Shown here: positions 1-45,505 of the stretch, one piece after another
How positions within the stretch are numbered: position 1 is the first letter of the stretch
Layout: the number at the start of each line of letters is the position of its first letter
IMG/VR virus record: IMGVR_UViG_3300025389_001063
Direction: 5' to 3' (one strand)
Length of the DNA: 64,000 bases
DNA from: a virus
Lineage: Duplodnaviria; Caudoviricetes
The notes under the pieces: generated by a model
Databases searched by the model: none
Told to the model about the DNA's origin: nothing
What the model saw: the letters and a program-made list of their open reading frames with translations, nothing else
Position numbers and translations under genes: made by a program

Positions 1-1
1 A

Positions 2-1057
2 GAGTCAGCCACAGCTGGTGCTACATCTGCCGGTAATGTCGCAACTCTTAACAGAGTTATTCTTCCAGTAATTCGTCGTGTTATGCCGACAGTTATTGCT
101 AACGAACTCGTTGGCGTTCAGCCAATGACTGGTCCAGTTGGCCAGATCCATACACTTCGCGTACGTTATGCTGACACTTCATCAGGTGCTGGTGTAAACG
201 CAGGCGAAGAGGCTCTAAGCCCATTCAAAATTGCTGCTGCTTACTCAGGTAACGAAGTAAGTGCAACACCAAGAGCTAACTCAACTGCATCACTCGAAGG
301 TACAGCTGGTAAGCGTCTAAGCATCCAGATCTTAAAGCAGGTCGTAGAAGCTAAATCACGTAAGCTCAGCGCACGTTGGACTTTCGAAGCTGCTCAGGAT
401 GCTCAGGCACAACAAGGTATCGATATTGAAGCAGAAATCATGGCAGCACTTGCTCAGGAAATTACTGCTGAAATCGATCAGGAAATCCTAAGTTCACTTC
501 AAACACTTGCTGGTACAGCCGTTGAAACATACGACCAATCAGTAGTAAGTGGTGTTGCAACATTCGTTGGTGACGAACATGCTGCTCTTGCAGTTCAGAT
601 CAACCGTGTAGCTAACCTCATCGCTCAACGTACACGTCGCGGTGCTGGTAACTGGGCAGTTGTTTCTCCGTTCGCTCTAACTATCCTTCAGTCAGCAACT
701 ACTTCAGCATTTGCTCGTACTACTGAAGGTACTTTTGAGGCTCCAACAAACACCAAGTTCGTTGGTACACTCAACAGCTCAATGAGAGTTTATGTTAATG
801 CTTATGCATCAGACAGCACACCAGTTCTCATTGGTTACAAAGGTTCAAGTGAATCAGACGCTGCTGCGTTCTACTGCCCATACATTCCACTAATGTCAAG
901 CGGTGTTGTACTTGATCCATCAACTTTCGAACCAGTTGTTAGCTTCATGACACGTTACGGATATGTAGAGCTCAGCAATGCAGCTTCATCATTAGGTAAC
1001 GCTGCTGACTACCTCGGACTAGTTGGTGTAACAAACGGAACTGTAAAGTTTTCCTAA
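2..1057 (+). CDS. gp23: Major capsid protein, T4 gp23-like (5'-truncated by window edge)
   Basis: The frame is open from position 2 (ESATAGATSAGNVATLNRVILPVIRRVMP), upstream of the track's Met at 83. It has gp23 motifs GVQPMTGPVGQI, KSRKLSARWTFEAAQD, EITAEIDQEI, FYCPYIPL and FMTRYG. Confidence 0.95.
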   Translation, partial: ESATAGATSAGNVATLNRVILPVIRRVMPTVIANELVGVQPMTGPVGQIHTLRVRYADTSSGAGVNAGEEALSPFKIAAAYSGNEVSATPRANSTASLEGTAGKRLSIQILKQVVEAKSRKLSARWTFEAAQDAQAQQGIDIEAEIMAALAQEITAEIDQEILSSLQTLAGTAVETYDQSVVSGVATFVGDEHAALAVQINRVANLIAQRTRRGAGNWAVVSPFALTILQSATTSAFARTTEGTFEAPTNTKFVGTLNSSMRVYVNAYASDSTPVLIGYKGSSESDAAAFYCPYIPLMSSGVVLDPSTFEPVVSFMTRYGYVELSNAASSLGNAADYLGLVGVTNGTVKFS

Positions 1058-3178: not shown

Positions 3179-3523
3179 ATGGCAATACAAAGCATAGCAG
3201 TTAACTCATCAAATACAACAATTTTCACAGCGACAAATGATCAAATGATCGCTACAATGATTTTTTGTAATACTGCTTTACCAAATCCATTACAAATAGA
3301 TTCTAATACAACATATCTAAATGTTCATTTAGTTCCAAATGTTTCTGGTTCGGCTGGTTCTCCATCAAATACAAATTTAATAGTAAATGCATTAATGATT
3401 CCAGCAGGAGAAACTGTTTTCTTTGATACTGAAAGAATTGTTCTGCAAGCAGGTGACACTATTGTAGCAAATACAACTAGTCCAGCAGTTATTTCATGCA
3501 CAATTAGTACGGTGGCAATCTAA
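3179..3523 (+). CDS. Small beta-rich virion adaptor-like protein (114 aa)
   Basis: Pattern TTIFT..FCN..IPAGET..ERIVLQAGD is shared with 10736..11065 and with the termini of 16435..23934. Confidence 0.65.
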   Translation: MAIQSIAVNSSNTTIFTATNDQMIATMIFCNTALPNPLQIDSNTTYLNVHLVPNVSGSAGSPSNTNLIVNALMIPAGETVFFDTERIVLQAGDTIVANTTSPAVISCTISTVAI

Positions 3524-3990
3524 TGAGATTTTTAAAATCACAGAATCTAAACAAGTTTAGAAGAACTGATCGTACAGTTTCTCAAGACTTTACGGGTCGT
3601 GTTGAGATGAGATCTAATAGTACTTTGTTAGTTCCAAAAGGAAATTTAGCAGGGCGTCCACTTGCTCCTGAAAACGGACAAATTAGATATAATACAGATA
3701 TAAACGATATGGAAGTTTATGTTCAAGGAACATGGAAACAATTAAGATATAAAGAATCTACACAAATTGTTCAACAAACTCTTGGATACGGAAACTACTC
3801 ACAAACACGTTTTGGACCATTAAATCCAGTGCCGGCCGCTGGACAAAATATATTTGTTTTTGTCGAAAACGTTTTTCAAATATTTCAAGTAAACTACACA
3901 TTAATTCAATTACCTGGAGGATGGTATATAAATTTTGATGAAGCTCCTCCGTCGAAACTCATAACAGTTTTACATAATTTTGATATCTAA
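3523..3990 (+). CDS. Virion structural protein (155 aa)
   Basis: Carries the LxxPxGxxxxRP..GxIRYNTD..ExY..W motif also found in the 4034 and 7633 fibre proteins; TAATG stop/start overlap. Confidence 0.7.
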   Translation: MRFLKSQNLNKFRRTDRTVSQDFTGRVEMRSNSTLLVPKGNLAGRPLAPENGQIRYNTDINDMEVYVQGTWKQLRYKESTQIVQQTLGYGNYSQTRFGPLNPVPAAGQNIFVFVENVFQIFQVNYTLIQLPGGWYINFDEAPPSKLITVLHNFDI

Positions 3991-7532: not shown

Positions 7533-7632
7533 TTATTAACGCCGGACAATACCAACAAAGTCTGGATGTCTAAACTGTGGAAACCCGCAATGTAAGGTGG
7601 TTAGCCGTGAAACTCGGTGGTGAGGAGCGTTG
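7533..7632 (+). promoter_or_regulatory. Putative structured 5' leader
   Basis: GC-richer 100-nt leader with hairpins CCGGAC/GTCTGG, TGTGG-aaac-CCGCA and CCG-tgaaact-CGG, ending next to SD GAGGAG. Confidence 0.35.
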
Positions 7633-10600
7633 ATGACGGTCGTTGGTCGTATCTCAGGCCCGCTCTTAAAAGCAAATCTTCTCCGAGATGGAGTTAATTT
7701 AGCTTTTGAGACTAGCCTTCTTTATTTAGACGTTAATAACCGACGCATTGGTATCAATACCAGTTCACCTACACACGATTTACATGTAAACGGAACATTA
7801 AGAACTACTAACATTGATGGATTAACTTCTCTCACTGTTGGGGCAAATTTTCTTCTAAGCGGAAATACTTTATCAACTAGTGGATCAACACTAACACTAA
7901 GTTCAACATCTGGTGGAGTTATCTATCAAAATAACTTAACAGTAAGTGAAATTAATATTCAATCAAATATTATTTCAACAAATACTACAAATACAGATTT
8001 ACAATTAGTAGCTAACGGAACAGGAAAAATTTCAGTTTATTCTGATATGCTTGTTCAAGGAAATATACATGCTACAGGTAATATTACTGCTGATGGTAAT
8101 ATTATTATTGGTAATCAACCATCAGATATCGTAACTTTTAATGCAGATATTGCTAGTAATATTATTCCTAAGACAACAAACACTTATGATTTAGGATCAA
8201 CATCAAATCGTTGGAATAATCTATGGACTAATACAATTAATGCTAATACCATTAGCACAACTAGTTTAACAATAAACGGTATTAACATTTTACAAGGACA
8301 AGGAAATATTCTCTATGTTGCTACAAATGGTAGTAATTCTAACAACGGTATTTCTCAAAATAGTCCATATGCAACACTACAATATGCTTTATCACAAGCA
8401 ACTTCTGGAACTACAGTTTACATATATCCAGGAACTTATCAAGAAATATTACCTTTATCTATACCTTCTGGAGTTTCTATTAAAGGTATTGAACCAAATA
8501 CTGTTATAATTACTCCGACACCTTCTACAAGCAGTAATGACGTATTCTTAATAGATGGGCAAACAACTGTTGAAGATTTAACAATAAAGAATTTTTATTA
8601 TAATTCCTCTGCAAATACAGGATACGCTTTTAAATTAAAAAATGGATTTAAAGTAACAACAAAATCACCTTATATTAGAAATGTTTTTGTTATTACATCT
8701 GGATCTGTTACAAGCAACTCAGATCCTAAAGGATTTTTAACTGGAGATGCAGGTAAAGGAATATATTTTGATGGATCAGTTGCTGATTCAACTAGCAATT
8801 ATGTTTCTTGCTTAGTAGATAGCACTAATTTTATAACTCCAGGTGTGGATAGTATAACCGCAACAAACGGTGTTCGTTTAGAAATTGTAAATTCAAATAC
8901 ATATTATAGTAATAGAGGAATTTATGCTTATGTTTCCTCATCACAAGGTCGCGCTGGCAATGCATACACAGTTCTTAGAGTTAGTGGTGCAACAGGATCT
9001 TATAGTGTTGGAAGTACTATAAGTTATTATGTAAGTGGATCAGTAGTAGCTACCGGAACTATCTATTCAATAGGAACAGATGGAAAAATATATATTTCTG
9101 GATATTCTCCTGGATTTGTTCAAGCAACAACTGTTAATGGAATTTTACAAACACAAGATATTAGATTTAGTACTGGAGCAACTGCTCAATATATAACTTT
9201 AGCAGATTATAGAAATTTTGGAGCAGAAATTAGAGCAGTAGGTTCTGGAAACTTCTACGGAAATTATGGTGTAGTTGGTAACGGAATTGGTGTTTATATT
9301 GATCTTTTAACACAGAGTGTTTTTTATGTTGGTTCTGGAAATAATGATAGCAATGATCCAACAACAGCAATTCAAGCAAATGAAATTGTAAGTCTTAATA
9401 ATGCTCTTATAGTTTATACTGATACTAATCACAATGGTGATTTTAGAGTAGGTGGTCTTTTTTATGTAAATCAAGAAACTAATGATGTTGCATTTAATAA
9501 TGTTAATCTTAGAGTTAATGGACCATACGGCATAACATTAGTTAATGGATCTAATTCGTCAAGTATTACTCCTTATCAAATTACTACAGGAAATTTAACA
9601 GTAGCAAATAATACAATTAGTAGTACATCAGGTAACATTAATCTTAGTGCAGCTAATAATACTATTAATTTACAAAATGATACTTATGTAACAGGTTCTT
9701 TAACTGTTTCAGGTACTACAAATATAAACGGAAATATAACACTTGGATCATCGTCTTCAAATACAATAAATTTCGTTGGCAGCATAGCAAGTGATCTTAT
9801 TCCTTTAGCAAATAATACTTATAATTTAGGTAATTCTTCATATTCGTGGAGTAATATATACGCTAAAACTGCAAATATATCAAATGTTAATATAACCAAT
9901 AATAATATTCAAACAATTTCTACAGGTTCGAATCTTTATTTGAGTGGAAACGGAACTGGATCTGTTAATATTGGTAGTTTTAGTATAAATCAAAATACTA
10001 TTTCTGTATCTTCTAGCAATGATTTTATCATTACACCTGGTACAGGTAAAATAGTTAATATATCTTCAACAGGATCATTACAATTACCATCTGGAACAAG
10101 TTTACAAAGACCTACTGCTGTAGCAGGGATGATCCGTTACAATACTGATAATCATAATTATGAAGGTTATAATGGTTCTAATTGGATTGTATTAAATGGA
10201 TTATATGATGTCGCTCAGACAACTTATATAACACCAGAATTAACACCTGGAGCAGGTGATCAAACATTCCGTTTTTATATAGGTAATACACAAGTTGCAG
10301 ATTTAAATTCTACAAGATTTAATGTTAATGGAGTTACTGTTGGTAATACATACATCAGTAACAACGTTATAGGAACTACATCAAATACAGATTTAACTAT
10401 TAATTCATCATCTGGAAATATTAATATAGAATATTTTCGAATAAATGGTAGTTCAATTACTAATACTGTTTCCAATAGTATTACAACTATTTCACAAAGC
10501 GGAACAGGATATTTTAAAATAAGTGGTACTGGTGGTTTTGTTATACCTTCTGGAAACAGTCTAGGAAGACCTTCAGTACCAGAAATAGGTTTTTCCAGAT

Positions 10601-10731
10601 ATAATACAGACGATGGTCGTATTGAAGTATGGAACGGAGCATCATGGGTTTCGGCAGGTGGATCATCTATCGGTGTTTCCTATAACGATGCCCAGCAAAT
10701 TGCAGTACAGATAGCGTTAATGTTAGGATAA
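7633..10731 (+). CDS. Tail fibre/spike protein with beta-helix region, paralog of 4034..7513
   Basis: Collinear with the 4034 protein. ATG 7633 is preferred over TTG 7630 (SD GAGGAG at 7622-7627). Two PxG..RP..RYN..W motifs; C-terminal AQQIAVQIALMLG. Confidence 0.7.
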   Translation: MTVVGRISGPLLKANLLRDGVNLAFETSLLYLDVNNRRIGINTSSPTHDLHVNGTLRTTNIDGLTSLTVGANFLLSGNTLSTSGSTLTLSSTSGGVIYQNNLTVSEINIQSNIISTNTTNTDLQLVANGTGKISVYSDMLVQGNIHATGNITADGNIIIGNQPSDIVTFNADIASNIIPKTTNTYDLGSTSNRWNNLWTNTINANTISTTSLTINGINILQGQGNILYVATNGSNSNNGISQNSPYATLQYALSQATSGTTVYIYPGTYQEILPLSIPSGVSIKGIEPNTVIITPTPSTSSNDVFLIDGQTTVEDLTIKNFYYNSSANTGYAFKLKNGFKVTTKSPYIRNVFVITSGSVTSNSDPKGFLTGDAGKGIYFDGSVADSTSNYVSCLVDSTNFITPGVDSITATNGVRLEIVNSNTYYSNRGIYAYVSSSQGRAGNAYTVLRVSGATGSYSVGSTISYYVSGSVVATGTIYSIGTDGKIYISGYSPGFVQATTVNGILQTQDIRFSTGATAQYITLADYRNFGAEIRAVGSGNFYGNYGVVGNGIGVYIDLLTQSVFYVGSGNNDSNDPTTAIQANEIVSLNNALIVYTDTNHNGDFRVGGLFYVNQETNDVAFNNVNLRVNGPYGITLVNGSNSSSITPYQITTGNLTVANNTISSTSGNINLSAANNTINLQNDTYVTGSLTVSGTTNINGNITLGSSSSNTINFVGSIASDLIPLANNTYNLGNSSYSWSNIYAKTANISNVNITNNNIQTISTGSNLYLSGNGTGSVNIGSFSINQNTISVSSSNDFIITPGTGKIVNISSTGSLQLPSGTSLQRPTAVAGMIRYNTDNHNYEGYNGSNWIVLNGLYDVAQTTYITPELTPGAGDQTFRFYIGNTQVADLNSTRFNVNGVTVGNTYISNNVIGTTSNTDLTINSSSGNINIEYFRINGSSITNTVSNSITTISQSGTGYFKISGTGGFVIPSGNSLGRPSVPEIGFSRYNTDDGRIEVWNGASWVSAGGSSIGVSYNDAQQIAVQIALMLG

Positions 10732-10735
10732 AAAT

Positions 10736-11065
10736 ATGGCAACAACATTTTTAACTTCAGTAGTACCAAATATCGGAACAAGCTCAACAACATTAGTGTC
10801 AGCAGCATCAAACGTTTCGATTACTATTATTGGTTTAAGTTTAGCTAACACTACAGAAAGTTTAGTTAAAGTAAGTGTTACTCTTACAGATGCTTCTAGT
10901 CACACAGGATACTATATAAAAAATGTAATGGTACCTCCAAGAACCAGTATGAAAATTGTAAATGGCGGTGAAAAATTAATTTTAGGAGCATCAAATGTAT
11001 TGTCGGCAATAGCAGATAGTCCGACATCTATAGATGCTATTGTTTCTTATGTGCAGATAGTATAA
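10736..11065 (+). CDS. Small beta-rich virion adaptor-like protein (109 aa)
   Basis: Same pattern as 3179..3523; directly follows a large fibre gene. Confidence 0.65.
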   Translation: MATTFLTSVVPNIGTSSTTLVSAASNVSITIIGLSLANTTESLVKVSVTLTDASSHTGYYIKNVMVPPRTSMKIVNGGEKLILGASNVLSAIADSPTSIDAIVSYVQIV

Positions 11066-11076
11066 GGATATAGAAC

Positions 11077-11448
11077 ATGACTGATTATTTTCTTGGTGGT
11101 AATGCAATAACTCAAAATGATTTATTAGGTGGACAACCTAGATATTTCTACGGGTTAAGAAGAACAGATCAAGGTGATCTTTATTTTGTTAGAATTGATC
11201 AGTTAGAACAATCTGATACAATTACAATTAATAATCCTGGACCTACTTCGGGAAATTATGATCAATTTGAGTTTGGTACAGACTTCTTTGAGGGTAGAGA
11301 TGTAAATCATAATCTAGTTTATTCTAATTTAACTTATGAACAATATCGTTGGGATAATAGAAGTATGTATTATTACATTGACTCAAATGGTGAATTAACA
11401 GCAGTAATAGGACAGGTACATACATATCCTTCAGCAGGAAACGTATAA
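11077..11448 (+). CDS. Hypothetical protein, probably virion-associated (123 aa)
   Basis: Clean ORF in the structural operon; aromatic-rich (RYFYGLRR, YEQYRWD). Confidence 0.7.
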   Translation: MTDYFLGGNAITQNDLLGGQPRYFYGLRRTDQGDLYFVRIDQLEQSDTITINNPGPTSGNYDQFEFGTDFFEGRDVNHNLVYSNLTYEQYRWDNRSMYYYIDSNGELTAVIGQVHTYPSAGNV

Positions 11449-11523: not shown

Positions 11524-14500
11524 ATGGCTGAGTTTAAAATAGGAAGATTGAGATTTGTATGGCAGGGAACATGGACTACTAGTACTAGCTATGTTAAAGA
11601 CGATGTTGTTCGATTCGGTGGTAAAACATATGTATGTTTGGTAGGAAATACTTCCGGCACTTTCTATACAGATCTTGCTAGTGGTTATTGGTCATTAATG
11701 GCTGATGGATTTTCTTATCAAGGAACATGGACAACAGCAACTTCATACAAAATAGGTGACGTTGTTAGAAATGGTGGTCAATCTTATATTTGTGTTACAG
11801 GAAATACTTCCGGCGCAACTTTTGCAGGTGACTCGGCTTATTGGAATTTATTAGCAGGTGGTATTTCTTGGAGAGGTACTTGGACACCGGCAACACTTTA
11901 TAATGTTAATGATATTATTATATTTGGTGCTATTACATTTATTTGTACAACTGCAAATACTAGTTCTTCAAATTTTGCTACAGATCAATCTTCGTATTGG
12001 ACAATTTTTGCACAAGGAACTCAATTTGTTAATACATGGAACAATTCTACTCAATACTCAGCAGATAGTATTGTAACTTATGGTGGTTATACTTACGTTT
12101 CATTGCAGACTAATACAGGACAAGTTCCGCCGTCTAGCCCTAGTTATTGGTCAGTTTACACAACTGGTTATAGTAATCAAGGTACATTTAGTTACGGAAC
12201 AACATACAAAGTAGGTAGTGTTGTTCAATACGGTGGTAATACATATGTTGCTATTCTTGATAATACTAATCAGTATCCAACTAATGTTACATATTGGTCA
12301 ATAGTAGCATATGGTCTAAATGTTAGAGGAACATTTAGTTACGGAACACAATACAATCCAAACGATATTGTTGTTTATGGTGGTACAACTTACTATGCAT
12401 TACAAGCAAATATCAATGTTTATCCTTCTGCATTAGGATCAAACTGGAAGGTATTATCGTCAGGTCTTTCTAATAGAGGAACATGGTCAAATTCAACAAA
12501 TTATTTTGTTAATGATTTAGCTTCTTATGGTGCAAACATTTATATTGCTACACAAGATAATACAGGTCAAACACCAAGCACTTCAGCTTCATATTGGTCA
12601 GTATTTAATTATGGATATAACTATGCAGGAACATGGACTTCATCAACTGCATATAAATTAGGTCAGGTTATTACATTTGGTGGTTCTCTATATCAAGCAC
12701 TATCAGACAATACTAATCAAACACCGGGTAATGTAACAATAACTGTTACTGCTACAACTACTGGTACAAACTTAATTACAGCAAGTAGCACAACAGGTTT
12801 AGCAGCTAATCAGCCAATAGTATTTGCTTCTAGTGTTGGAAATCTTGTAGCAGGTACAACTTATTATATTTTATCAGGTTTCTCAGGAACACAATTTCAA
12901 GTAAGTTCTACAATAGGCGGTACAGCATTTAGTTTATCAACAGCAGGACCTGTCTCAATTAGTGCTACACAATATGGAACTACATATTGGTCAAAATTAT
13001 CTTTTGGTATTAAGAACAGAGGTACTTGGGTAACTTCAACATCATATAACGTTGACGAAATTGTAATACATGGTGCAAATGTATACATTTCATTAATAGC
13101 ACATACATCAGGTACTTTTTCATCAGATTTAAGCGCAAGCAAATGGCAAATACTTGCTAGTGGCTTAGCATGGAGAAATACTTGGGCTTCTTCTACTGTT
13201 TATTATGTAAACGACTTAGTTGTTGGTCCATCAGGATCTGTTTATATTGCACTACAAGATAATACTTCTAGCGGTACTTTTAGTACTGATTTAGGTGCGG
13301 GTTATTGGCAGATATTTGTACAATATAATTCATTCTCTCCTCCATCATACTCAACTCCAGGAACAGCATTAACAGTTGCATCGGGAGGTGCATCTCTTAG
13401 TTGGTTGAACCCAACTGGTTCTACTAATGTTCTTTATGTTGGTCCAGGTGGTGTTGATAGTGTTTCAGGTGGTTATGGTACAAGTTTAGCATTACCTTTT
13501 GCAAGTATTAGATATGCTTGTACTCAAGCAAGTTCAGGATACACAATTTTTGTCAAATCAGGAACATATAATGAATTTCTTCCAATTACTGTTCCAGCAG
13601 GTGTTGCAGTTATTGGTGATAACGTTAGAACAACATTTGTTAATCCAGTTAGCGGAACTAGCGTAACAACTACAGTTACTCAAGTTTCATCAACTGGTAA
13701 CTTAATTACAGCAAGTAGTACAGCAAGTTTCATAGCAAATGCACCAATAACATTTAGTGCTAATCTAGGTAATCTTGTTGCAGGTACTGTTTATTATATT
13801 GTAAGTGGTTTTGGTGCAACTACTTTCCAAGTAAGTTTAACATCAGGTGGTTCAGTTTTTAATCCAGGAACTGCTACAGGATCAATCAGTGCTACACAAT
13901 ACGGTGACTTAACTGGTTTAATTCCAAACAATCAATCAACAATGTTTAAACTAAGTGATAATACTTCTCTTCGTGAAATGACATTCCAGAATATGACTGG
14001 TTGGGTTCCAGGTGGAACAGCAAACGACATTACAACATCAACTCCTAAAGGTATCTATATTGGATTTAATTCAGGAGCAATTACTAGACCACCGAGTGTT
14101 TCAAATTGTACAACAAGTACGGCTTCAGGAGCAATCGGTGCTTATCTAGATGGTTCAGTAGTTACTGGATTAAAAACAGCAAGTTTCCGTTATTTTAACG
14201 TTCAAAGTGATACAGGTGTTGGTATTTGGGCTACAAATAATGCAAGACCTGAAGTAATTACAAGCGCAACATCATATTGCTATTTCAGTTATGCTGCTAC
14301 AAATGGTGGTTTTATAAGACTTAACAATTGTAAAACAAACTGGGGTACTTATGGTTTAACTTCTAGAGGTTATCTATCTTCAGAAACTGCAATTACTGGT
14401 AATGTTGTTGGACAACAATTAAACTTTACATATAACACAGGTAATATTAACGTAGGTGATACTGTTACTTCAGTAACTAGTGGTGGTACTGCTACAGTTA

Positions 14501-16401
14501 TCGGTGTCCAACTAACACAAAATAAAGTATTTGTTACTAGTGCTACAGGAACATTTAATGTTAATGACTTGCTAACATTTACTAGTGGTGGTACAGGTAC
14601 AGTAACTACAGGTGCATTAAGTAATCAAACAGGTAACTCATTTACATTGAATACTTTAACTGCACAACCTGTTGCTGGTAGTGTTATTACATTAAACGGT
14701 ACAGATTCTTATGTTGTTCAAGCAGTTAACGGAACTTGGGTTAACTCGTCAACAGTAATAACAATTCTTTTAGCATCCACTACTGTTACAACATATGCAA
14801 ATAGTACATCAGCATCTTTCCGTTCTCAAACATCAGTTGTTAAAGCAGAAGCACATGAGTTCTTCTATGTTGGTACAGGTGGTGTAACAAATACAAACTA
14901 TCCAGGAACTCCGTTATCAGGTCCAACTCCAGCAAACGAAATTGTTCAAGGATTACCTGGTAGAGTATACTACGAATCAATCAACGAATACGGAAACGTT
15001 AAAATTGGTAGTTATTTTAACGTTAATCAGCAAACAGGTGTTGCTACACTTAATCCAGCAGCATTTGCTATAACTGGTGCATCATCCTTACAACTAGGTG
15101 CAATTGGTACATTAACTGGAGCAACTATCACTAAGTTCTCTACAGATGGAACTTTAGTTAATAATAGTAGCCTTAGTGTTCCTACTGAATCTGCTGTTAA
15201 GACGTATGTTGATAATGGTCGTACAACAACACTTTTACCAAATGGTTTCAATCTCAGCAGTCTTACTAGCATTGGTATAGTTGAAATTTCAAATGACGGT
15301 GTTAACATTGTTAAGATAGATCAAAACTTAACTGCAACTACAAGAGCAGACTCAACATTTGGTACTGGTACATCATATGCAAGAGCTGCAAGTGCTAGAA
15401 CTATTGTAATATATCCAGTTAGCGGACAGACTTCATTTACAGTATGGGTAAGTGGTATTCAATACACTTATACATCAATGATAACTGGAACATACGCAAG
15501 TCTAAACAATCTTAATTACTTCTTCTTTGGACCAAGTGGTATAGTATCTTATACATCTGGAACTATTCAAGACTCATATTATGAAAGTTTAGCACTATTT
15601 GCAGTTGCAACAGGTACAGATAGCACTAACACATTTGCTGTATTTTCGAGAAAAACACTCGGAATTAATATGCCAGGTACAGTTCACCGTTATTTGATTA
15701 ACTCTACTGGTGCTGTATATAAGACTGGTTTAGGTGTTGTTGGTGCAACATCAGGTGCTACCACATATACTAATACAGTAGCAGGTTCTACCGCAGTACA
15801 AGAATTAACACATACTTTTGCATCACTATCAACTAACTATTGGTTGTATAATATTGCTGGAGTATGGACTGTAGGTACTGCTGATAATAACTTTGGTTAT
15901 TTAACAGGTGGTACTGCACAATATAACGGTTCGGGTGCATTAACAACACTCACAACAGGTCAGTACACAGTTACATATTTTATTGCTACAAGTGATAAAA
16001 TACGTGGTGGTGTTATGAAACTTGTAGGACAAAAAGTATTCACATCACTTGCCGCTGCAAGACAGTCGGCATCAACTGAACCAAGAGACACAAGTCTTGT
16101 TGGTTTACCTAACATGGATTTTGTTTGGATTGGAGCTGTAGTTATTAACTCAACGGGTGCTGTTCAGACATTAGATAACGGAACAACATATATTGATCTT
16201 CGTTATCAAATCATAAACGGCGGTGTTAATAGTTTAGGTTATCATCTGGTCAATGCAGCAGCATCAGACATTTACTATAATAATGCAACATCCGGTTTAG
16301 CAGCAACAAACGTTCAAACAGCAATTGATGCTGCTTCTTCAAGTTTGACTAGAGCTAGAAGTACATTATCACTAAATACATTATGGACAAATGCCTGGTA
16401 A
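11524..16401 (+). CDS. Large adhesin/tail spike: about 10 CBM5/12-like repeats plus beta-helix domain (1625 aa)
   Basis: Repeats of GTW..(S/T)T.Y...D.V.(Y/F)GG..Y....NT....YW. Then LYVGPGG.D...G..L..PFASIRYA...A.SG.TIFVKSGTY, as in the 4034 and 7633 proteins. Confidence 0.7.
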   Translation: MAEFKIGRLRFVWQGTWTTSTSYVKDDVVRFGGKTYVCLVGNTSGTFYTDLASGYWSLMADGFSYQGTWTTATSYKIGDVVRNGGQSYICVTGNTSGATFAGDSAYWNLLAGGISWRGTWTPATLYNVNDIIIFGAITFICTTANTSSSNFATDQSSYWTIFAQGTQFVNTWNNSTQYSADSIVTYGGYTYVSLQTNTGQVPPSSPSYWSVYTTGYSNQGTFSYGTTYKVGSVVQYGGNTYVAILDNTNQYPTNVTYWSIVAYGLNVRGTFSYGTQYNPNDIVVYGGTTYYALQANINVYPSALGSNWKVLSSGLSNRGTWSNSTNYFVNDLASYGANIYIATQDNTGQTPSTSASYWSVFNYGYNYAGTWTSSTAYKLGQVITFGGSLYQALSDNTNQTPGNVTITVTATTTGTNLITASSTTGLAANQPIVFASSVGNLVAGTTYYILSGFSGTQFQVSSTIGGTAFSLSTAGPVSISATQYGTTYWSKLSFGIKNRGTWVTSTSYNVDEIVIHGANVYISLIAHTSGTFSSDLSASKWQILASGLAWRNTWASSTVYYVNDLVVGPSGSVYIALQDNTSSGTFSTDLGAGYWQIFVQYNSFSPPSYSTPGTALTVASGGASLSWLNPTGSTNVLYVGPGGVDSVSGGYGTSLALPFASIRYACTQASSGYTIFVKSGTYNEFLPITVPAGVAVIGDNVRTTFVNPVSGTSVTTTVTQVSSTGNLITASSTASFIANAPITFSANLGNLVAGTVYYIVSGFGATTFQVSLTSGGSVFNPGTATGSISATQYGDLTGLIPNNQSTMFKLSDNTSLREMTFQNMTGWVPGGTANDITTSTPKGIYIGFNSGAITRPPSVSNCTTSTASGAIGAYLDGSVVTGLKTASFRYFNVQSDTGVGIWATNNARPEVITSATSYCYFSYAATNGGFIRLNNCKTNWGTYGLTSRGYLSSETAITGNVVGQQLNFTYNTGNINVGDTVTSVTSGGTATVIGVQLTQNKVFVTSATGTFNVNDLLTFTSGGTGTVTTGALSNQTGNSFTLNTLTAQPVAGSVITLNGTDSYVVQAVNGTWVNSSTVITILLASTTVTTYANSTSASFRSQTSVVKAEAHEFFYVGTGGVTNTNYPGTPLSGPTPANEIVQGLPGRVYYESINEYGNVKIGSYFNVNQQTGVATLNPAAFAITGASSLQLGAIGTLTGATITKFSTDGTLVNNSSLSVPTESAVKTYVDNGRTTTLLPNGFNLSSLTSIGIVEISNDGVNIVKIDQNLTATTRADSTFGTGTSYARAASARTIVIYPVSGQTSFTVWVSGIQYTYTSMITGTYASLNNLNYFFFGPSGIVSYTSGTIQDSYYESLALFAVATGTDSTNTFAVFSRKTLGINMPGTVHRYLINSTGAVYKTGLGVVGATSGATTYTNTVAGSTAVQELTHTFASLSTNYWLYNIAGVWTVGTADNNFGYLTGGTAQYNGSGALTTLTTGQYTVTYFIATSDKIRGGVMKLVGQKVFTSLAAARQSASTEPRDTSLVGLPNMDFVWIGAVVINSTGAVQTLDNGTTYIDLRYQIINGGVNSLGYHLVNAAASDIYYNNATSGLAATNVQTAIDAASSSLTRARSTLSLNTLWTNAW
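11557..13320 (+). repeat. Ten ~50-aa Trp/Tyr-rich CBM5/12-like protein repeats; repeat 8 is interrupted by an 83-aa insert
   Basis: Repeats counted by eye in the translation; insert at 12730..12978. Confidence 0.75.
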
Positions 16402-16434: not shown

Positions 16435-19400
16435 ATGACAACAGCGGCAAAATATGGCGCACAAGACTTAAACGGTAATCCATTCAATTACCAACAGTTA
16501 GTTCCACTACCAAGTACAAACCCAAGTACTACAAATACCGTAGTTAATACCAACATCACTAACAGAGCAGCATATGATGCCAGAGTTAGAGTTGCTTTAA
16601 CTAATACCCCAATTGGATCACAAGTTGTTTCAAACGTTCATGGATCGCAGTCATTTGTTGCACAACAGAGTGCAGCATCAACACTTGTTGAAACACAACA
16701 AGTTTTAACAATTGATACTGCATCAGCAATTACTAATGCATTTTCAACAGCATCATATGTTGTTACAGCAACTACTGAAAATACAAACGTTATTACAGTA
16801 TCAAGTACTGCAACATTTACAGTTGGTCAACCAGTTGTATTCAGTGCTTCGGTTGGTAACTTAACAGCAGGTACAGTTTATTATATCCTAACTATTCCTA
16901 GTTCAACAACATTTACTGTTTCTCCAATTTGGAACGGACCAGTTCAAATGTTAACTACTAGTACATTTCCTATGATTGTCCAACAAACTGTAACTAACCT
17001 GTCAGTTGGTATGCCAATTAACTTCCACGGTACTACATTTGGTTATGCTTTTTATAACATGAACTATTATGTTGCAAGTTTACCAGGTGGTTCAAATGGT
17101 ACAACATTTACTATTTCATTATTCCCAGGTGGTCCAACATTACCTTTAATTTCTGCAATTGGTACAATGTCCTGCGTTCCAGTAGTTACTCCAGTTGCTA
17201 ACCCACAAACCGCTCAGTATCCAACTGCAATGACTTCAGCAATTGCACTTAATACAACTGCTCAGTCAGGCTACTATAATACTTTACAAGGTATTACTGT
17301 AATAGCATCAACAGCATCAACTAACGTATTAACTACAGCATCATTTTCGATTACTGCATCAACTGCTGCTTCAGGTACATTAGGTTTTGGTTATTTAACA
17401 ACTAGTGGTAACGCATACCTCTTAACAGCAGGACAACCAATTGTATTCAACGCAACAGTTACTGGTTCTGCTCTTTATGCTAACATTACATATTATGTTC
17501 ACTCAGTATTAAGTTCTACAACATTTACTGTTAGTACTTCTTATAACGGTAATCCATTCTCAATAGCAACTAATGCTAGTATCAGTGGTGTTACAATGTA
17601 TCTAAGTACAAACTACCTTCAGACTAACCAGCAGATAATTTTCACTGGTACTTCTTTTGGTAATATTACTCCAAATACTCCATACTATATTTCAACAGTT
17701 CCAAGTAATAACACATTTACTGTTTCAACTTGGCCAGGTGGACCAGTATTTCCTTTAACAACTACCACAGGTACAATGGTTGCATCGGCGTTTGTTCCTC
17801 CAACAGTTCCACAACTTGTTTTTGGTAGTTCTCAAGCAGGTGTAACTCTAAACATTAGTGCTACAACTACTGGTACAAACTTAATTACTGCTACTAGTAT
17901 AACTGGTTTAGTAGCAAACCAACCAATCGTATTCAGTGCTAGTATTGGTGGTCTTATTGCTAATACAACTTACTATGTTGTAAGTGGTTTTGGTGGAACT
18001 ACATTCCAGGTAAGTGCAACACAAGGTGGTACTGCATTAAGTTTAACATCTGGTACAGGTACATTAACTGCCCAAGCATTACCATATTTTAACACTTTTT
18101 CAACAACTGTTACAGCAACTACAGCAAGTACAAACTTAATTACTGTAACAAATACATCAAACTTTGTTCCAGGACAACCAGTTGTATTTGCTTCTGCTGT
18201 TGGTGGACTTAGTGCTAATACTGTTTACTATGTATTAAACGTTTACAGTTTAACACAATTGGTTGTTTCAACAACACAAGGCGGTGTAGCATTCCCTCTA
18301 ATCACTACTACAGGTCAGTCTGTAGCAATGTCTCAAGCAACTACTGGTTTAGCAACAAACCAACCGTTGCAGTTTGCTACCGTAACAATTTCAGTTACAG
18401 CAACATCGTCAACTGGTAATTTAATTACTTGTAATAATACTGTAAATCTTGTAGCAAACCAGCCAATAGTATTCAGTGGAACAATTGGTACTATTACAGG
18501 TGGTACAGTTTACTATGTGTCAGCAGTTACAGGTGGTAGTACTACTACATTTACTATCAGCCAAACATCGGGTGGTGCTGTATACGGCATGTCCAATGCT
18601 TCAGGTTCCGTAACGGCTCAACAAGGTACATTCTCTGGATTAGTTCCAGGACAGGTATACTATGTATACAGTGTTCCTTCACTAACACAAGTTGTAGTTT
18701 CAAGCATCCATGGTGCGCCAACTCCTCTTACATTAACTACTGTAGCAGCAGGTTCTATGCTTGCTACATTCCAGTCAGTTATTCCTACAATTACACTAGG
18801 AACATCAACTGCAACTGGTACAGTTTATCCTTTAAACAACACTTATACAACTTCAACATATTCAATAAGCAGCACTACTACAACTAACGTTGTTATTGGT
18901 TCTGCAGTTCCACTTATGACAGGTCAGCCAGTTACATTCTTTATCGGTGGTTCACTTGCTAATTCGAACGGTATTGTTGCATTTGTATCAGTTACAGCAA
19001 CTACATCAGGAACTAACGTAATTACATTAGCAAGTGCTACTGGTCTTTATGTTGGTCAAGCAATTGTGTTTGGTGCTAGTGGTGGTGGTATTATTACAGG
19101 TACAGTTTATTATATTACATCGATTTCAGGTGCAAATATTACTGTATCAACAACACCATATGGTACAAACCTTACACTAACAACTGCTACAGTATCATTT
19201 ACTGGTGTTCCAACTTATTACATCACATATTATGATAACCCAACTAACTCTATACAGATATCTGCAACATACGGTGGTCCAATTGTTCCATTAACAGCAG
19301 GTATTCCAGGTAGTAGTACAGTACAACATGCAACTACTAACCTTCTTGCTGGGCAACCAATATATGTAACAGGTACAGCATTCGGTGGTACTACTACTAA

Positions 19401-22400
19401 TACTACTTACTATGTAAGAACTATTCCATCTGCAACACAGTTTACAATTTCAACTTCACCATTTGGACAGATCTCTACATTAACAGCAACAACTGGTACA
19501 ATGCCAACATTAATTGGTCCAAGACCAGTAATAACAATTCAGTCAAGTGTTTCATCAAACCAGTTAGCAACACAGACTTATGCAGTTACAGCAACTACAG
19601 CTACAACTAACTTAATTACTGTATCAAATACATTTGCTTTAACAGTAGGTATGCCAGTTGTATTCAGTGGTGCTTTAGGTAACTTAGTCAGTGGTATGAT
19701 TTACTATGTTGCAAGTATTCCAACAGCAACAGCATTTTCAGTTTCACCAACACTAGGTGGAAATACATTTGCTCTTGCTACAGCAACAGGTTCTGTAAAC
19801 GTACAACAGGCTACATCACTATTGTACATTAACCAAGAAATACAGTTCCAAGGATTTACTTATCCACTTAGTACAGCAACATCAACTGGTATTACATTTG
19901 GTACTACATATTTTATTAACAGTATTGTGTCTACTACAACCTTTACAATTTCAACAGCACAAAACGTTGCCGGTACATCTGCAACTACTGCTACTGTAAC
20001 AGGTGGTAACATAATTCTTGCTAACCCAATTGTTAATAACATTGTTGACGTATTTGCTTACACAACAAATCCTGTTACTGTAACAGCTACATCAAGTACA
20101 AGTCCAACATATTATCTAACTTGTGCTAATACAGTTAACTTAGCAGTTGGACAACCAATTATATTCACAGGTACTACATTATTAGGCGGTGTATCTGCAA
20201 ATACAGTTTACTATGTAAACTCAATTGCAAGTACTACACAGTTTAATATTTCATCTACATATGGTGGTCCAGTTGTAGCATTAACAACAGGTAGTGGTAC
20301 GATGTCAGTTCAACAAGCAACATCTGGTTACTCCGCTAACCAAACTGTTATATTGAACTCACCAACTGTAACTATTACTGGTACAAGTTCATCAGGTAAC
20401 TTATTAACTTGTAATACTACAAACAACTTAATAATTGGTCAGCCAATTGTATTCGGTAATATGGCACAAGGTACTGCTAGTATTGGTGGTGTTGTTGCTG
20501 GTACAACTTACTATGTATTAAGTACACCAAGTACAACAACATTTACAGTATCAGCTACTCCAAGTGGATCTGCACTTACTTTAACTACTACTTCAACACA
20601 GTTTGCAGGACAGCAAGGTATATTCGGTCAGCAATATAATACTAATGGTCAGAACTGGGTAGTTCAAAGTACACCAAGTTTAACATCACTTATACTTTCA
20701 AGAGTAGGTTCAAGTGTTACACAGTCTGGTTTAGGACTATTTCCACTACCAGCAGTTGCACCACTTGTAGTAACTGCTACATCAGGATCTAGTCCATATT
20801 ATATTACAATATCAAGTACTGCATCACTTACAGTTGGACAACCTGTAATATTTGTTGGTACAACATTTGGTGGTTTAACTGCTTCAGTTAACAGTCTTAT
20901 TAACCCAACTGTTTACTATGTAAATGCAATTGCAAGTTCTACTACATTTAACGTTTACACTACAACTCCAGGTACTCCAGTTGTATTAACAGGTGCTAGT
21001 GGTAACTGTATTCTTGTTCCGTTAAGTGCAACAGGTATTGCTACTGCTTATTCATACAACGTAACACCAACTCTTGCTATTGGTGCTACAACAACAAGTA
21101 CTAACATTTTAACTACACAGGCTTACAGCGTTTCACTAGGTGCATCAGGTACAAACTTGATATCAATATCAACATCAGGTGGTACAACAGCATTTGTACT
21201 TGGACAACCAATTACATTTGCTGCAAATACTGGTAGTATTACAGGTGGTATTACTTACTATATCTCTTCGATACAGTCAACTACCACATTTAGTATTTCA
21301 CAGTTCTTTGGCGGACCAGACTTGATTATTACAGGTTCCGGTAGTACTACAATGAACCAAATAACATCATTCTTACAGATTAATCAACCAGTAACATTTA
21401 CTGGTACATTATTAGGTGGTTTGACTGCTGCTTCTAACTATGCTGTAACATACTATGTAACTAACGTAGTAAGTAGTACAACATTTGTTGTCAGTACTCA
21501 GTCAGGTGGTGTAGGCACACAGTTATCACTCACAACAACAACTGCTACAGCACCAAGCTTTATGATGGCACAAGTTGGTTCTTATAGATCTCTTAGTTTT
21601 AACTCAACTAACAACGGTACTTCAGTACTGCAAACTGAAAGTTTTTCTGTAACTGCTACTGCCGCAATTAACGGTGGTCAGATGCTTGTTACAGCAAGTA
21701 ACACATTTGCAATGTATCCAGGTATGGCTCTATCGTTTACAGGTACATCGATCGGATTTTTATCAAATAACGTTCTTTACTATGTAGTATCTGTATATGA
21801 CGAAAAAAGATTTATTATTTCTACTGCACCAGTTGGGTCAATTGGTATTGCAACAAACGGTACAACTGTTCTACAGACAGCAAACGGTGTTGCACTAACA
21901 CAACAGACTACAACAGGTACTATGTCAGCTGTACAAAGTTTAGCAAGATTACAACAGAACCAAGCAGTTGTATTTTATCCAACTATTGGTGGTGTAATGA
22001 TTGCAGGCTTAACACAGGGTACAATTTACTATGTTAACCCTACATTTACTAATCCAATGAGTGGCACATTGTCAGTATCAACTACACCTGGCGGTTCGGC
22101 ATTTACATTCTCAGCAGTTAACAATACTGGTACTACGGCGGCTATGATAATGGTTCCACTATCAACATGGACTGTTGCGTCAAACGTAATGATCACACAG
22201 CCAATGCCAATTTATAGTGGTACAACATCATCAAACGTGTTCACTACTGGTAACTTAACTATTGTTACAAATACATCATACGGTACAAACTATATCACTT
22301 GCTATAGTACATCTGCACTAGCAGTTGGTATGCCAGTTGTATTTGGTTCGGCTATTGGTTCACTAGCATCTGCTACAACATACTATGTTGTTCAAATTAT

Positions 22401-23934
22401 TAACGCAACACAGTTTACAGTATCACAAACTTGGGGTGGTCAAGTTGCTATTCTAACACAAGGTACTGGTGCTGTTACACTTCAACCGTCGACAGCATTA
22501 ATGACGGTAGGTCAACCAATGTTAGTTACAGGAACTGGATATATTTCATTTACTAGTAGCTATACCGTTGCATATAATCCAGCTTTTTATGTTGCTTCGA
22601 TTCCAAGTTCTACAACATTTACATTAGCTTCATCGTTAGCTAATGCGTTAGCAGGCACATCACTTGCAATCTCAACCACAACATATGGTTATATGACTAT
22701 GACTGGATCAACTGCAAACTACTTAACAAATATGTCAAACGTAATTGGTCCATCACAACCAATTGCATTTACTGGAGCACAGATTAACGTAACTATTGTT
22801 AACGGACAGAATCTATATACTCCAAATAGTACAATATTATTAAGTGCTAACCAAGCAGTAGTGTTCACAGGTTATGGTTATACTAGCCAAACAAGTGGTA
22901 CTATACAGCCAGGTACAGTTTACTACATTAAGGCTATCTTAGATAATAATACATTTACTCTAAGTGCAACACCAGGTGGTACTGTAATAACTTGGGTAAC
23001 TGAAACTAATACTTTAACAATGCAAATTGTAAGTAACTTAGGTTCATCATTAATACCTTACTCAACTTACTTTGTATTGGCAACACCAACTCCAAATACA
23101 TTCCAGATTTCAACATCTGCTGCAACTGCAAGTGGTTTAACATTAACAGTACCGTCCGCTGTAACACAAACAGCAGGTAATACTATAGTTAACGTTGCAA
23201 GTAACATTGTTACACTTGCTCAAGCACAGGGTGCAACAAATACATTCTTTGTACCAAACACTCCTGTAACATTTACAGCATATAGTGGTACAACGTTTGG
23301 TGTAGGTGCAACAGCAGGTACAAGTACATTCAACGGTGCTCCAGTTCCAGGTACTCCGTTCATAGTAACAGCAGTTGCTACAAACGGTAACATTACATTG
23401 AACACATCTGCAGCTAGTTTACTAGTAATAGGTCAACCGATAGTGTTTACAAACCCACTATCACCGATTACATCTTCAACTGGTGTATCACCATTCGTGA
23501 CATATTATGTTCTTAGCATTTCAACTACAACAATTACAGTTGCTTCAAGTTGGCCAAGCACTACAGCAGTAACATTCTCCGCTGCTTGGTCTTCACAGTC
23601 AACAGTTGGTGGTTTCTATGCTATACCACATTACTATGTTAAAGCAGTACTTGATAGCAGAAGAATTATGCTATCGGCTACACTAAATGGTTCAACTTGG
23701 CCAATTACAAACGCATCTGGTACTGTTCCAGGTAACTATGCTACTGGTACAAACATTATGACAATCAACTCACTACCGTCATATACTGACTTTATTGAGC
23801 ACGATGTTTCATTATCACCAAACGGTACATTTGAAAGAACAGGTATACTTGTTCCTCCAAATACTTACTTGTATGTTTCAAGTAATCAGCCACAGGTAAC
23901 TGCGGTAGCAATAGGTATCCAAGAATCAGTATAA
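16435..23934 (+). CDS. Giant Thr/Ser-rich virion protein with about 27 ~80-aa beta modules (2499 aa)
   Basis: About 27 occurrences of the core QPxVF..G.L..GTxYYV..I.S.TTFTVS; very few charged residues; termini resemble the 109-114 aa adaptor proteins. Confidence 0.8.
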   Translation: MTTAAKYGAQDLNGNPFNYQQLVPLPSTNPSTTNTVVNTNITNRAAYDARVRVALTNTPIGSQVVSNVHGSQSFVAQQSAASTLVETQQVLTIDTASAITNAFSTASYVVTATTENTNVITVSSTATFTVGQPVVFSASVGNLTAGTVYYILTIPSSTTFTVSPIWNGPVQMLTTSTFPMIVQQTVTNLSVGMPINFHGTTFGYAFYNMNYYVASLPGGSNGTTFTISLFPGGPTLPLISAIGTMSCVPVVTPVANPQTAQYPTAMTSAIALNTTAQSGYYNTLQGITVIASTASTNVLTTASFSITASTAASGTLGFGYLTTSGNAYLLTAGQPIVFNATVTGSALYANITYYVHSVLSSTTFTVSTSYNGNPFSIATNASISGVTMYLSTNYLQTNQQIIFTGTSFGNITPNTPYYISTVPSNNTFTVSTWPGGPVFPLTTTTGTMVASAFVPPTVPQLVFGSSQAGVTLNISATTTGTNLITATSITGLVANQPIVFSASIGGLIANTTYYVVSGFGGTTFQVSATQGGTALSLTSGTGTLTAQALPYFNTFSTTVTATTASTNLITVTNTSNFVPGQPVVFASAVGGLSANTVYYVLNVYSLTQLVVSTTQGGVAFPLITTTGQSVAMSQATTGLATNQPLQFATVTISVTATSSTGNLITCNNTVNLVANQPIVFSGTIGTITGGTVYYVSAVTGGSTTTFTISQTSGGAVYGMSNASGSVTAQQGTFSGLVPGQVYYVYSVPSLTQVVVSSIHGAPTPLTLTTVAAGSMLATFQSVIPTITLGTSTATGTVYPLNNTYTTSTYSISSTTTTNVVIGSAVPLMTGQPVTFFIGGSLANSNGIVAFVSVTATTSGTNVITLASATGLYVGQAIVFGASGGGIITGTVYYITSISGANITVSTTPYGTNLTLTTATVSFTGVPTYYITYYDNPTNSIQISATYGGPIVPLTAGIPGSSTVQHATTNLLAGQPIYVTGTAFGGTTTNTTYYVRTIPSATQFTISTSPFGQISTLTATTGTMPTLIGPRPVITIQSSVSSNQLATQTYAVTATTATTNLITVSNTFALTVGMPVVFSGALGNLVSGMIYYVASIPTATAFSVSPTLGGNTFALATATGSVNVQQATSLLYINQEIQFQGFTYPLSTATSTGITFGTTYFINSIVSTTTFTISTAQNVAGTSATTATVTGGNIILANPIVNNIVDVFAYTTNPVTVTATSSTSPTYYLTCANTVNLAVGQPIIFTGTTLLGGVSANTVYYVNSIASTTQFNISSTYGGPVVALTTGSGTMSVQQATSGYSANQTVILNSPTVTITGTSSSGNLLTCNTTNNLIIGQPIVFGNMAQGTASIGGVVAGTTYYVLSTPSTTTFTVSATPSGSALTLTTTSTQFAGQQGIFGQQYNTNGQNWVVQSTPSLTSLILSRVGSSVTQSGLGLFPLPAVAPLVVTATSGSSPYYITISSTASLTVGQPVIFVGTTFGGLTASVNSLINPTVYYVNAIASSTTFNVYTTTPGTPVVLTGASGNCILVPLSATGIATAYSYNVTPTLAIGATTTSTNILTTQAYSVSLGASGTNLISISTSGGTTAFVLGQPITFAANTGSITGGITYYISSIQSTTTFSISQFFGGPDLIITGSGSTTMNQITSFLQINQPVTFTGTLLGGLTAASNYAVTYYVTNVVSSTTFVVSTQSGGVGTQLSLTTTTATAPSFMMAQVGSYRSLSFNSTNNGTSVLQTESFSVTATAAINGGQMLVTASNTFAMYPGMALSFTGTSIGFLSNNVLYYVVSVYDEKRFIISTAPVGSIGIATNGTTVLQTANGVALTQQTTTGTMSAVQSLARLQQNQAVVFYPTIGGVMIAGLTQGTIYYVNPTFTNPMSGTLSVSTTPGGSAFTFSAVNNTGTTAAMIMVPLSTWTVASNVMITQPMPIYSGTTSSNVFTTGNLTIVTNTSYGTNYITCYSTSALAVGMPVVFGSAIGSLASATTYYVVQIINATQFTVSQTWGGQVAILTQGTGAVTLQPSTALMTVGQPMLVTGTGYISFTSSYTVAYNPAFYVASIPSSTTFTLASSLANALAGTSLAISTTTYGYMTMTGSTANYLTNMSNVIGPSQPIAFTGAQINVTIVNGQNLYTPNSTILLSANQAVVFTGYGYTSQTSGTIQPGTVYYIKAILDNNTFTLSATPGGTVITWVTETNTLTMQIVSNLGSSLIPYSTYFVLATPTPNTFQISTSAATASGLTLTVPSAVTQTAGNTIVNVASNIVTLAQAQGATNTFFVPNTPVTFTAYSGTTFGVGATAGTSTFNGAPVPGTPFIVTAVATNGNITLNTSAASLLVIGQPIVFTNPLSPITSSTGVSPFVTYYVLSISTTTITVASSWPSTTAVTFSAAWSSQSTVGGFYAIPHYYVKAVLDSRRIMLSATLNGSTWPITNASGTVPGNYATGTNIMTINSLPSYTDFIEHDVSLSPNGTFERTGILVPPNTYLYVSSNQPQVTAVAIGIQESV

Positions 23935-43264: not shown

Positions 43265-45505
<2,241 letters not shown>

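Follow-up and report, generated by a model that had tools for sequence, protein, structure and literature searches.

How can a protein of 2,499 residues be almost free of charge, and from what was it built? The question is raised by an open reading frame (ORF) at 16435-23934 (plus strand) of a 64,000-nucleotide stretch of Caudoviricetes DNA (IMG/VR record IMGVR_UViG_3300025389_001063; hereafter the window, meaning the whole of that stretch). The composition of its product, the giant protein, is extreme (Thr 19%, Ser 11%, Asp + Glu + Lys + Arg 1.4%, Lys 0.2%), while that of its two termini, unlike the protein as a whole, is unremarkable. Pfam and PHROGs returned nothing usable for it, and neither the gene (megablast) nor its first 60 and last 120 residues (tblastn) had a match in 50,697 phage records. 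An earlier reading of the letters alone, the sequence-only reading, had proposed that a single loop insertion had enlarged a domain of ~110 residues about 20-fold, and our results support that proposal. We conclude that the giant protein is very probably a virion domain of ~105 residues that carries ~2,385 residues, or ~95% of the chain, inside its strand 4-5 loop. The fuller account, in which a split jelly roll, an inserted array and docking and display on the virion are taken together, is in our judgment likely to be the best explanation of the locus.

The two ends of the giant protein match complementary halves of one small domain

The ends of the ORF are exactly as the sequence-only reading quoted them, the first 56 residues running to ...VRVALT and the last 48 beginning with DFIEH, and six giant relatives of 2,014-2,846 residues retain both termini. 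We made a profile (A2) from the last 68 residues of the giants and scored it against 1.84 billion representative proteins. At E ≤ 1e-3 it matched 61 proteins, many of them free-standing phage proteins of 102-115 residues that aligned over their C-terminal half (residues ~50-105), for example P0085 (107 residues, E 8e-8) and P0089 (111 residues, E 1.2e-6). The expectation that the termini would have full-length homologues of 100-120 residues is thus borne out by P0089, P0085, and S-CAM3 gp160 (102-115 residues).

An alignment and hidden Markov model (HMM) of 38 free-standing domains of ~105 residues (A3) was scored against the 115 ORFs of the window. The small proteins in A3 had been retrieved through their C halves only, rendering the test of the N half independent. 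With an HMM of the N half only, the giant protein was the sole match among the window's ORFs (residues 28-56, E 1.5e-5), and related forms of 594-1,941 residues matched at E 4.8e-10 to 6e-7, always within their first ~55 residues. The C-half-only HMM matched residues 2447-2497 of the giant (E 8e-22). The full A3 HMM ranked the giant first (E 2.5e-18) and broke at position 50, with HMM positions 21-50 falling on residues 28-57 and positions 50-104 on residues 2443-2497; residues 1-27 have the motif MTTA..G..LNG..Y in common with the uninterrupted 111-residue P0089. Unguided MAFFT alignment of 37 small domains with the 594-residue protein and the giants opened one gap, with zero residues in the insert, in independent runs. 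The insertion site lies after the strand ending ..(R)(V/L)AL(T/S) and before the conserved P...(D/E)(Y/F)IE, where the small proteins have a loop of 7-12 residues that varies in length. It is these complementary HMM halves at the chain ends, together with the single gap, that argue for one loop insertion.

A compositional accident, with the ends being unrelated and separate segments, would be one objection, given the strong compositional bias of the giant protein and the lack of a significant BLASTP match between its termini and the small proteins encoded at 3179 and 10736 in the window. E values, however, go down to 8e-8 for 107-residue proteins across the whole 1.84 billion-sequence database, the two HMM halves are complementary and sit at the exact ends of the chain, the gap is clean in the independent runs, and the composition of the termini is not extreme. 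On the strength of the database-wide significance, the complementary half-HMMs and the clean gap, this explanation is refuted for practical purposes, and we give it next to no probability.

The giant protein carries both signatures of the family typified by PSSM2_302 and S-CAM3 gp160, namely ..VN.CNR...R.A. (also ..V.VN.CNR......R.A..) in the N half and (D/E)(Y/F)IE(Y/F)D...LERTGI...G.E in the C half. Where typical members are uninterrupted at ~100-115 residues, it holds a 2,385-residue insert and so represents a derived, insert-bearing branch and an atypical member. Intermediates that have its N-terminal motif and its C terminus measure 594, 871, 1,278, 1,283 and 1,941 residues. The domain also occurs in other architectures: as tandem doubles of 215-219 residues (P0081, P0082, P0086-88, P0092, P0100, P0107 and P0117) and at the N terminus of multi-domain proteins of 419-642 residues. 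One further protein, P0075 (609 residues), has a complete jelly-roll copy at each end and ~400 residues of fibre-like sequence between them. In phrog_693 ('tail fiber protein', 493 positions), reached via P0121, P0094 and P0082, the N half matches positions 3-48 and the C half positions 412-478. This points to another, independent family in which the same loop would contain ~360 inserted residues.

A model of a shorter homologue closes both ends into a predicted jelly roll

We tested the fold on P0076, a natural homologue of 594 residues that has 62% identity to the window's giant at the N terminus and 48% at the C terminus. It was modelled by AlphaFold with an alignment designated A5, and structural matches were taken from an exhaustive structure search. 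The model had a mean predicted local distance difference test score (pLDDT) of 84 and a predicted template-modelling score of 0.70, with block means of 90-97 over residues 21-60 and 93-96 over residues 551-590. Its top matches, each spanning model range 1..593 with 91-102 aligned residues (91-96 for those of Z 8.0-8.4), were 8qpg_TD (Z 8.4), YomS 6i5o_A (Z 8.3), Ena3A/8pdz_R (Z 8.1) and 7dou_4 (Z 7.8). These chains are single jelly rolls of ~110 residues, and the same chains are the best matches of the free 109-residue protein encoded at 10736, whose analogues are the HFTV1 turret 8qpg_TD (Z 9.8), Ena subunits (Z 9.5-9.7), the STIV turret (Z 9.6) and the KHP40 cement protein 7dou_4 (Z 9.4). 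Because a single-domain chain of ~110 residues aligns over 1..593, the two ends of P0076 are taken to form one domain, and the model shows both ends closing into one predicted jelly roll. The sequence-only reading had expected the spliced termini to fold as one domain; the model bears this out for a natural protein rather than for the spliced sequence. Between the ends, P0076 residues 100-185 match small beta barrels (Z ~7), the fold class of the inserted module.

Several considerations weigh against this structural picture and its bearing on the giant protein. The model is that of a homologue and not of the window's 2,499-residue protein; A5 contains small domains, which pushes AlphaFold towards jelly-roll closure; and the structure search gives only the first and last aligned residues, so that contact between the halves is deduced and not read from coordinates. 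In addition, Z values of 8-10 are common among small jelly rolls, and the best structural analogues (the HFTV1 turret base and the KHP40 cement protein) belong to the head and not to the tail.

The two halves might also complement each other in trans, the N half of one subunit joining the C half of another to give strand-swapped oligomers or chains. Structural relatives do form oligomers and even strand-linked pili (Ena 7a02, 8pdz, 9i0y), and the 2,385-residue separation would make closure within one chain kinetically demanding. The P0076 monomer model nevertheless closes the domain in a single chain with high local confidence, the linkers on either side of the insert are conserved, and the free small proteins are ordinary single-chain domains. 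We consider complementation in trans unlikely and prefer closure of the jelly roll within one chain.

The insert is an array of ~70-residue Thr/Ser-rich modules

An iterated HMM identified 24 module copies in the giant protein (E 1e-9 to 9e-26), with a mean pairwise identity of 35% and a maximum of 56%, and Tandem Repeats Finder detected no DNA-level repeat in the gene. Because the copies have diverged this far and no tandem repeat remains in the DNA, the array is old and not the product of recent slippage. The modules match no Pfam immunoglobulin-like family. Most copies are in plain tandem, and at least two are nested: 624-653 + [654-724] + 726-769, and 2243-2300 + [2311-2383] + 2388-2429. 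In the nested arrangement a whole copy lies in a loop just past the ..NQP(I/L)xF strand of the host copy, and the C part of the host resumes after it. We infer that the linkers that flank the array (Table 1) pair with each other.

The same module occurs twice in the fibre protein encoded immediately upstream (residues 408-474 and 718-786) and twice in the 302-residue protein encoded downstream, and it is absent from the homologous S-CAM3 and P-SSM2 fibres. Since it is present in these neighbours and missing from those fibres, the module has spread in frame between adjacent genes in this lineage. Near-zero charge is common to all the giant relatives, and the uninterrupted 111-residue relative has 7% Asp + Glu + Lys + Arg. 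In the structural region, among Thr/Ser-rich fibre genes, two adjacent genes (36675-37742 and 37726-38826) combine a family-2 glycosyltransferase with tetratricopeptide repeats (TPR) according to Pfam. That their products glycosylate the Thr/Ser-rich array or other virion proteins is a reasonable idea, for which they are predicted candidates.

One locus holds a graded series of sizes

The order of genes in S-CAM3, gp162, gp161 (tail fibre) and gp160 (106 residues), corresponds to that of 11077, 11524-16401 and the giant gene in the window, and P-SSM2 has the same order in genes 300, 301 and 302, of which 302 is the 106-residue uninterrupted form. S-CAM3 gp160 is a canonical small member of the family. 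The three-gene order extends to metagenomic loci, in which the 594-residue form (locus L004) and a 111-residue form (locus L006) likewise lie downstream of a homologous fibre. We did not find in the window the downstream synteny with S-CAM3 (Gly_rich_2 paralogues).

Arranged by length from 111 to 2,499 residues, the proteins contain 0, 8, 7, 14, 14, 19, 22 and 24-25 modules, and relatives of 594 to 2,846 residues have 7-25. We calculated a maximum-likelihood tree from the jelly-roll columns only (107 columns), rooted at the midpoint. All insert-bearing proteins fell in one clade (support 99/91), with the uninterrupted 111-residue P0089 as its sister (97/90) and the shortest insert-bearing form branching first. 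One insertion followed by growth fits the single clade, the P0089 sister and the basal position of the shortest form. The tree shows an apparent single origin of the insertion, and longer proteins contain more modules.

The reverse course, in which the giant form is ancestral and the proteins of ~105 residues arose from it by deletion of the array, has in its favour that clean loss of an in-frame cassette is easy and that the tree is rooted only at its midpoint. The uninterrupted forms, however, show much greater diversity and a much wider distribution (cyanomyophages, an Acidithiobacillus phage, tandem doubles and fusions in which the domain is N-terminal), whereas the insert-bearing proteins make up one tight, well-supported clade beside an uninterrupted sister and have a nearly identical N-terminal motif. 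We regard a giant ancestor as highly improbable and retain insertion into a small domain, followed by growth. The resulting natural series at one locus (111, 594, 871, ~1,280, ~1,950, ~2,500 and ~2,850 residues) shows a giant virion protein growing from a tiny one by insertion and by gain of modules in the loop.

The small proteins encoded at 3179 and 10736 are probably distant paralogues

The sequence-only reading had derived its proposal from a match of the giant's termini to the small proteins encoded at 3179 and 10736. Both small ORFs are real, but the likeness is weak and exists at the profile level only, with BLASTP finding nothing significant between the termini and either protein, nor between the two small proteins themselves. 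We aligned 35 sequences of the 10736 family (A1), which is phrog_26609-like ('virion structural protein'). By hhalign, A3 and A1 matched with 88% probability (E 2.8e-6) over 76 columns. The match of A1 to the giant's termini was weak (E 0.009 for the C end and 0.17 for the N end), in the register that the sequence-only reading had proposed, and its matches to seven-sequence alignments of the termini and to a spliced N + C alignment were also weak (E 0.0085-0.17) and in the expected register. ORF 3179 was the second-best ORF of the window for the 10736-family HMM (E 5e-4), and tblastn of it against the 50,697 phage records gave no match. A sequence-profile search of the PDB with A1 returned only chance-level T-cell-receptor entries. 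From these profile comparisons, the 10736 and 3179 proteins are best seen as distant paralogues within one fold superfamily, rather than members of one family, and not as direct progenitors of the giant protein.

Each of the three genes had also been said to follow a large spike gene. This is so for the giant gene, which follows 11524-16401, and for 10736, which follows a gene for 1,033 residues; 3179 follows a gene for only 433 residues. In podophages, homologues of the 109-residue protein are encoded after tail-fibre genes and carry the annotation virion structural protein. In BFVD the 109-residue protein has 227 matches at E ≤ 1e-3, mostly phage proteins of 100-120 residues, some of which, as in S-TIM5 and MaMV-DC, bear the name virion structural protein. 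The 3179 ORF is followed, through an ATGA overlap, by an ORF for 155 residues (region 3179-3990) whose N-terminal part matches phrog_1325 and phrog_25721. In proteins of other phages, for example P0090 (419 residues), an A3-family jelly roll is fused upstream of a phrog_1325 region, and the 3179 ORF with its overlapping partner may be a split form of such a fusion.

Predicted docking and display on the virion

In every genome examined, the gene comes directly after a fibre gene within a cluster of tail-fibre or baseplate genes (S-CAM3, P-SSM2, AcaML1, HTVC100P, CRP-9 and the metagenomic loci), and tail fibre is the label of the PHROG families in which the domain occurs. In phage fibres the N-terminal position is usually the virion-proximal end. 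In view of the position in the tail cluster, the PHROG labels and the frequent N-terminal placement of the domain, we take the jelly roll to be the docking piece and the array to be displayed cargo with an anchor at either end. The terms 'adaptor', 'capping protein' and 'coat' of the sequence-only reading are guesses at function. The fibres of T7-like phages dock via an N-terminal jelly-roll barrel (PMC10575957), to which the jelly roll of the giant protein is comparable by analogy only. A search of the supplements of PMC3037559 found no proteomic evidence on T4-GC 297.

In the mechanism that we propose, the jelly roll would dock on the virion, with the tail fibre, the baseplate or a site next to them as the most likely place. 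Leaving and re-entering the jelly roll at one point, the almost uncharged Thr/Ser-rich array would form a long appendage, looped or hairpin-shaped, in contact with surfaces of the host or of particles. With its cargo in a loop, the protein could gain or lose modules by recombination while its docking surfaces stay untouched. For this docking-and-display function, predicted from genomic context and the annotation of relatives, we judge the chances to be about even.

The same split domain could instead dock on the capsid and decorate it in the manner of a turret base, a cement protein or Hoc, the array then being a head fibre or coat. In favour of this location, the best structural analogues are head proteins, namely 8qpg_TD (Z 9.8 for the free 109-residue protein and 8.4 for P0076) and the KHP40 trimeric cement protein 7dou_4 (Z 9.4 and 7.8), and the window opens with a major head protein gene. 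The 114-residue 8qpg_TD is probably the turret base protein on capsid hexamers, and the HFTV1 turret sits on capsid hexamers (bioRxiv 10.1101/2024.12.09.627619). These Z values, though, are within the range of any compact jelly roll, and both the position of the gene, directly after a fibre in the tail-fibre or baseplate cluster of every genome examined, and the tail-fibre label of the PHROG families argue for the tail. We therefore hold docking on the capsid to be the less probable location, though one with some chance of being right, and favour the tail fibre or baseplate.

A bolder reading, which we offer tentatively, is a 'looped fibre' in which a jelly-roll clasp closes a chain of beta modules ~2,400 residues long at one point of the virion. 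It would have arisen once from an ancestor of the 111-residue type and grown stepwise to at least 25 modules in marine jumbo myophages. Its modules may be glycosylated by the phage's own glycosyltransferase-TPR enzymes, and the hair-like or curly appendages seen on jumbo phages could in part be loops of this kind. To our knowledge, this kind of appendage has had no structural description so far.

Comparison with known systems

The closest known proteins are PSSM2_302 of P-SSM2 (T4-GC 297) and S-CAM3 gp160, 106-residue 'hypothetical' proteins of T4-like cyanophages that are also found in S-CAM1 and P-SSM5; Gp51 of Acidithiobacillus phage AcaML1 ('tail fiber-like protein') belongs to the same family. 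Like the giant protein, they have both motif halves and are encoded directly after a homologous tail fibre; unlike it, they are uninterrupted, whereas the giant holds ~2,385 residues in the strand 4-5 loop.

At the level of fold, HFTV1 8qpg_TD, YomS of B. subtilis SPbeta (6i5o), the Bacillus Ena proteins (7a02, 8pdz, 9i0y) and KHP40 7dou_4 have the ~110-residue jelly roll of the free 109-residue protein and of the split domain. The likeness (Z 8-10, root-mean-square deviation 2.5-3.0 over 91-102 residues) comes with 3-15% identity and no sequence signal, and homology is not established by such Z values. These jelly rolls are small oligomeric building or docking blocks, none of which has a large loop insertion.

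Insertion of binding domains into a loop of a structural chassis is a known principle. Domains are inserted in the adhesion devices of siphophages of lactic acid bacteria, in 'evolved' Dit and in decorated Tal and BppA, and loops are inserted in jelly-roll capsid proteins, as in the picornavirus VP2 'puff' and the birnavirus VP2 projection domain. In these cases, as proposed for the giant protein, the chassis keeps the assembly contacts and the loop displays binding modules. Their inserts, however, are one or a few domains of tens to a few hundred residues, as against ~95% of the protein and at least 24 modules on a chassis of ~105 residues. T4 Hoc, which has immunoglobulin-like domains and a capsid-binding domain, resembles the giant protein as a small virion-binding domain with a string of small beta domains, thought to serve weak adhesion; it is a linear fusion with the binding domain at one end, whereas both ends of the string in the giant protein join one and the same domain. 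What is new here is this family, the extreme ratio of insert to chassis and the graded series at one locus.

For annotation, the result means that the split domains of such proteins escape domain searches, because each half alone scores below threshold. The small proteins of P-SSM2, S-CAM1/3, pelagiphages and many metagenomic phages, annotated as hypothetical or virion structural, now have a predicted fold and a pointer to virion docking. If both ends of the cargo are fixed in the docking domain, the appendages should be loops or hairpins and the cargo should be exchangeable without disturbance of assembly, which would be relevant to the evolution of host range and to the engineering of phage display scaffolds.

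Features and genomic setting

Table 1. Positions of the parts of the giant protein and of associated genes in the window.
Feature	Coordinates	Strand	Evidence
N-terminal jelly-roll half, residues 1-57, strands 1-4, ending ...VRVALTN	16435-16605	+	N-half HMM match at residues 28-56; conserved in all giants
N-side linker, residues 58-109, not a module copy	16606-16761	+	Conserved in the insert-bearing clade; no module match; P0076 model has a strand directly after the N half
Inserted array, residues 110-2430, at least 24 copies of a ~70-residue Thr/Ser-rich beta module	16762-23724	+	Iterated HMM
C-side linker, residues 2431-2442	23725-23760	+	Between the last module (end 2430) and the start of the C-half HMM match (2443); conserved in giants
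C-terminal jelly-roll half, residues 2443-2499, strands 5-9, motifs DFIEHD...FERTGILVPP...GIQESV, plus stop codon	23761-23934	+	C-half HMM, residues 2447-2497
Upstream tail-fibre gene, 1,625 residues, syntenic partner	11524-16401	+	phrog_9851 'tail fiber' E 1.9e-181; homologue of S-CAM3 tail fibre gp161, E 1e-67; ~70-residue module twice
Gene for 123 residues before the fibre, synteny marker	11077-11448	+	Match to S-CAM3 gp162 (128 residues), E 9e-6; phrog_8997 match
Downstream gene, 302 residues	24420-25328	+	Module HMM matches at residues 36-106 (E 1.6e-18) and 149-213
109-residue jelly-roll protein, probable remote paralogue of the split domain	10736-11065	+	AlphaFold pLDDT 94, nine-strand jelly roll; hhalign against A3 88%, E 2.8e-6
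114-residue protein, more remote, probable superfamily member	3179-3523	+	hhalign against 10736 family 76%, E 2.4e-5 over the C half

The window represents the late structural part of a myophage genome. At its start lies a gene for a gp23-type major head protein (83-1057; phrog_138, E 1.6e-83), the nearest relatives of which are in jumbo myophages (Sinorhizobium phage Phosso, 78% identity; Vibrio phage 2.275.O, 72%; PA5oct, 70%), and large baseplate-wedge-like proteins are encoded at 4034-7513 and 7630-10731, the latter being the 1,033-residue protein mentioned above. Identical or near-identical proteins are present on metagenomic contigs of ~352-353 kb. The two nearest relatives are colinear with the window's giant at 72-73% identity, so that its gene is a stable one.

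The head protein is closest to those of jumbo myophages of Sinorhizobium, Vibrio and Pseudomonas (70-78%), whereas the fibre cluster is syntenic with that of T4-like cyanophages. Because these two affinities point to different phages, the virion module is a mosaic. Two more fibre genes, at 39605-42547 and 43265-45505, begin with an Mtd_N domain; one of them has a C-terminal Peptidase_S74 intramolecular chaperone domain, and the other has head-fibre-like and collagen segments.

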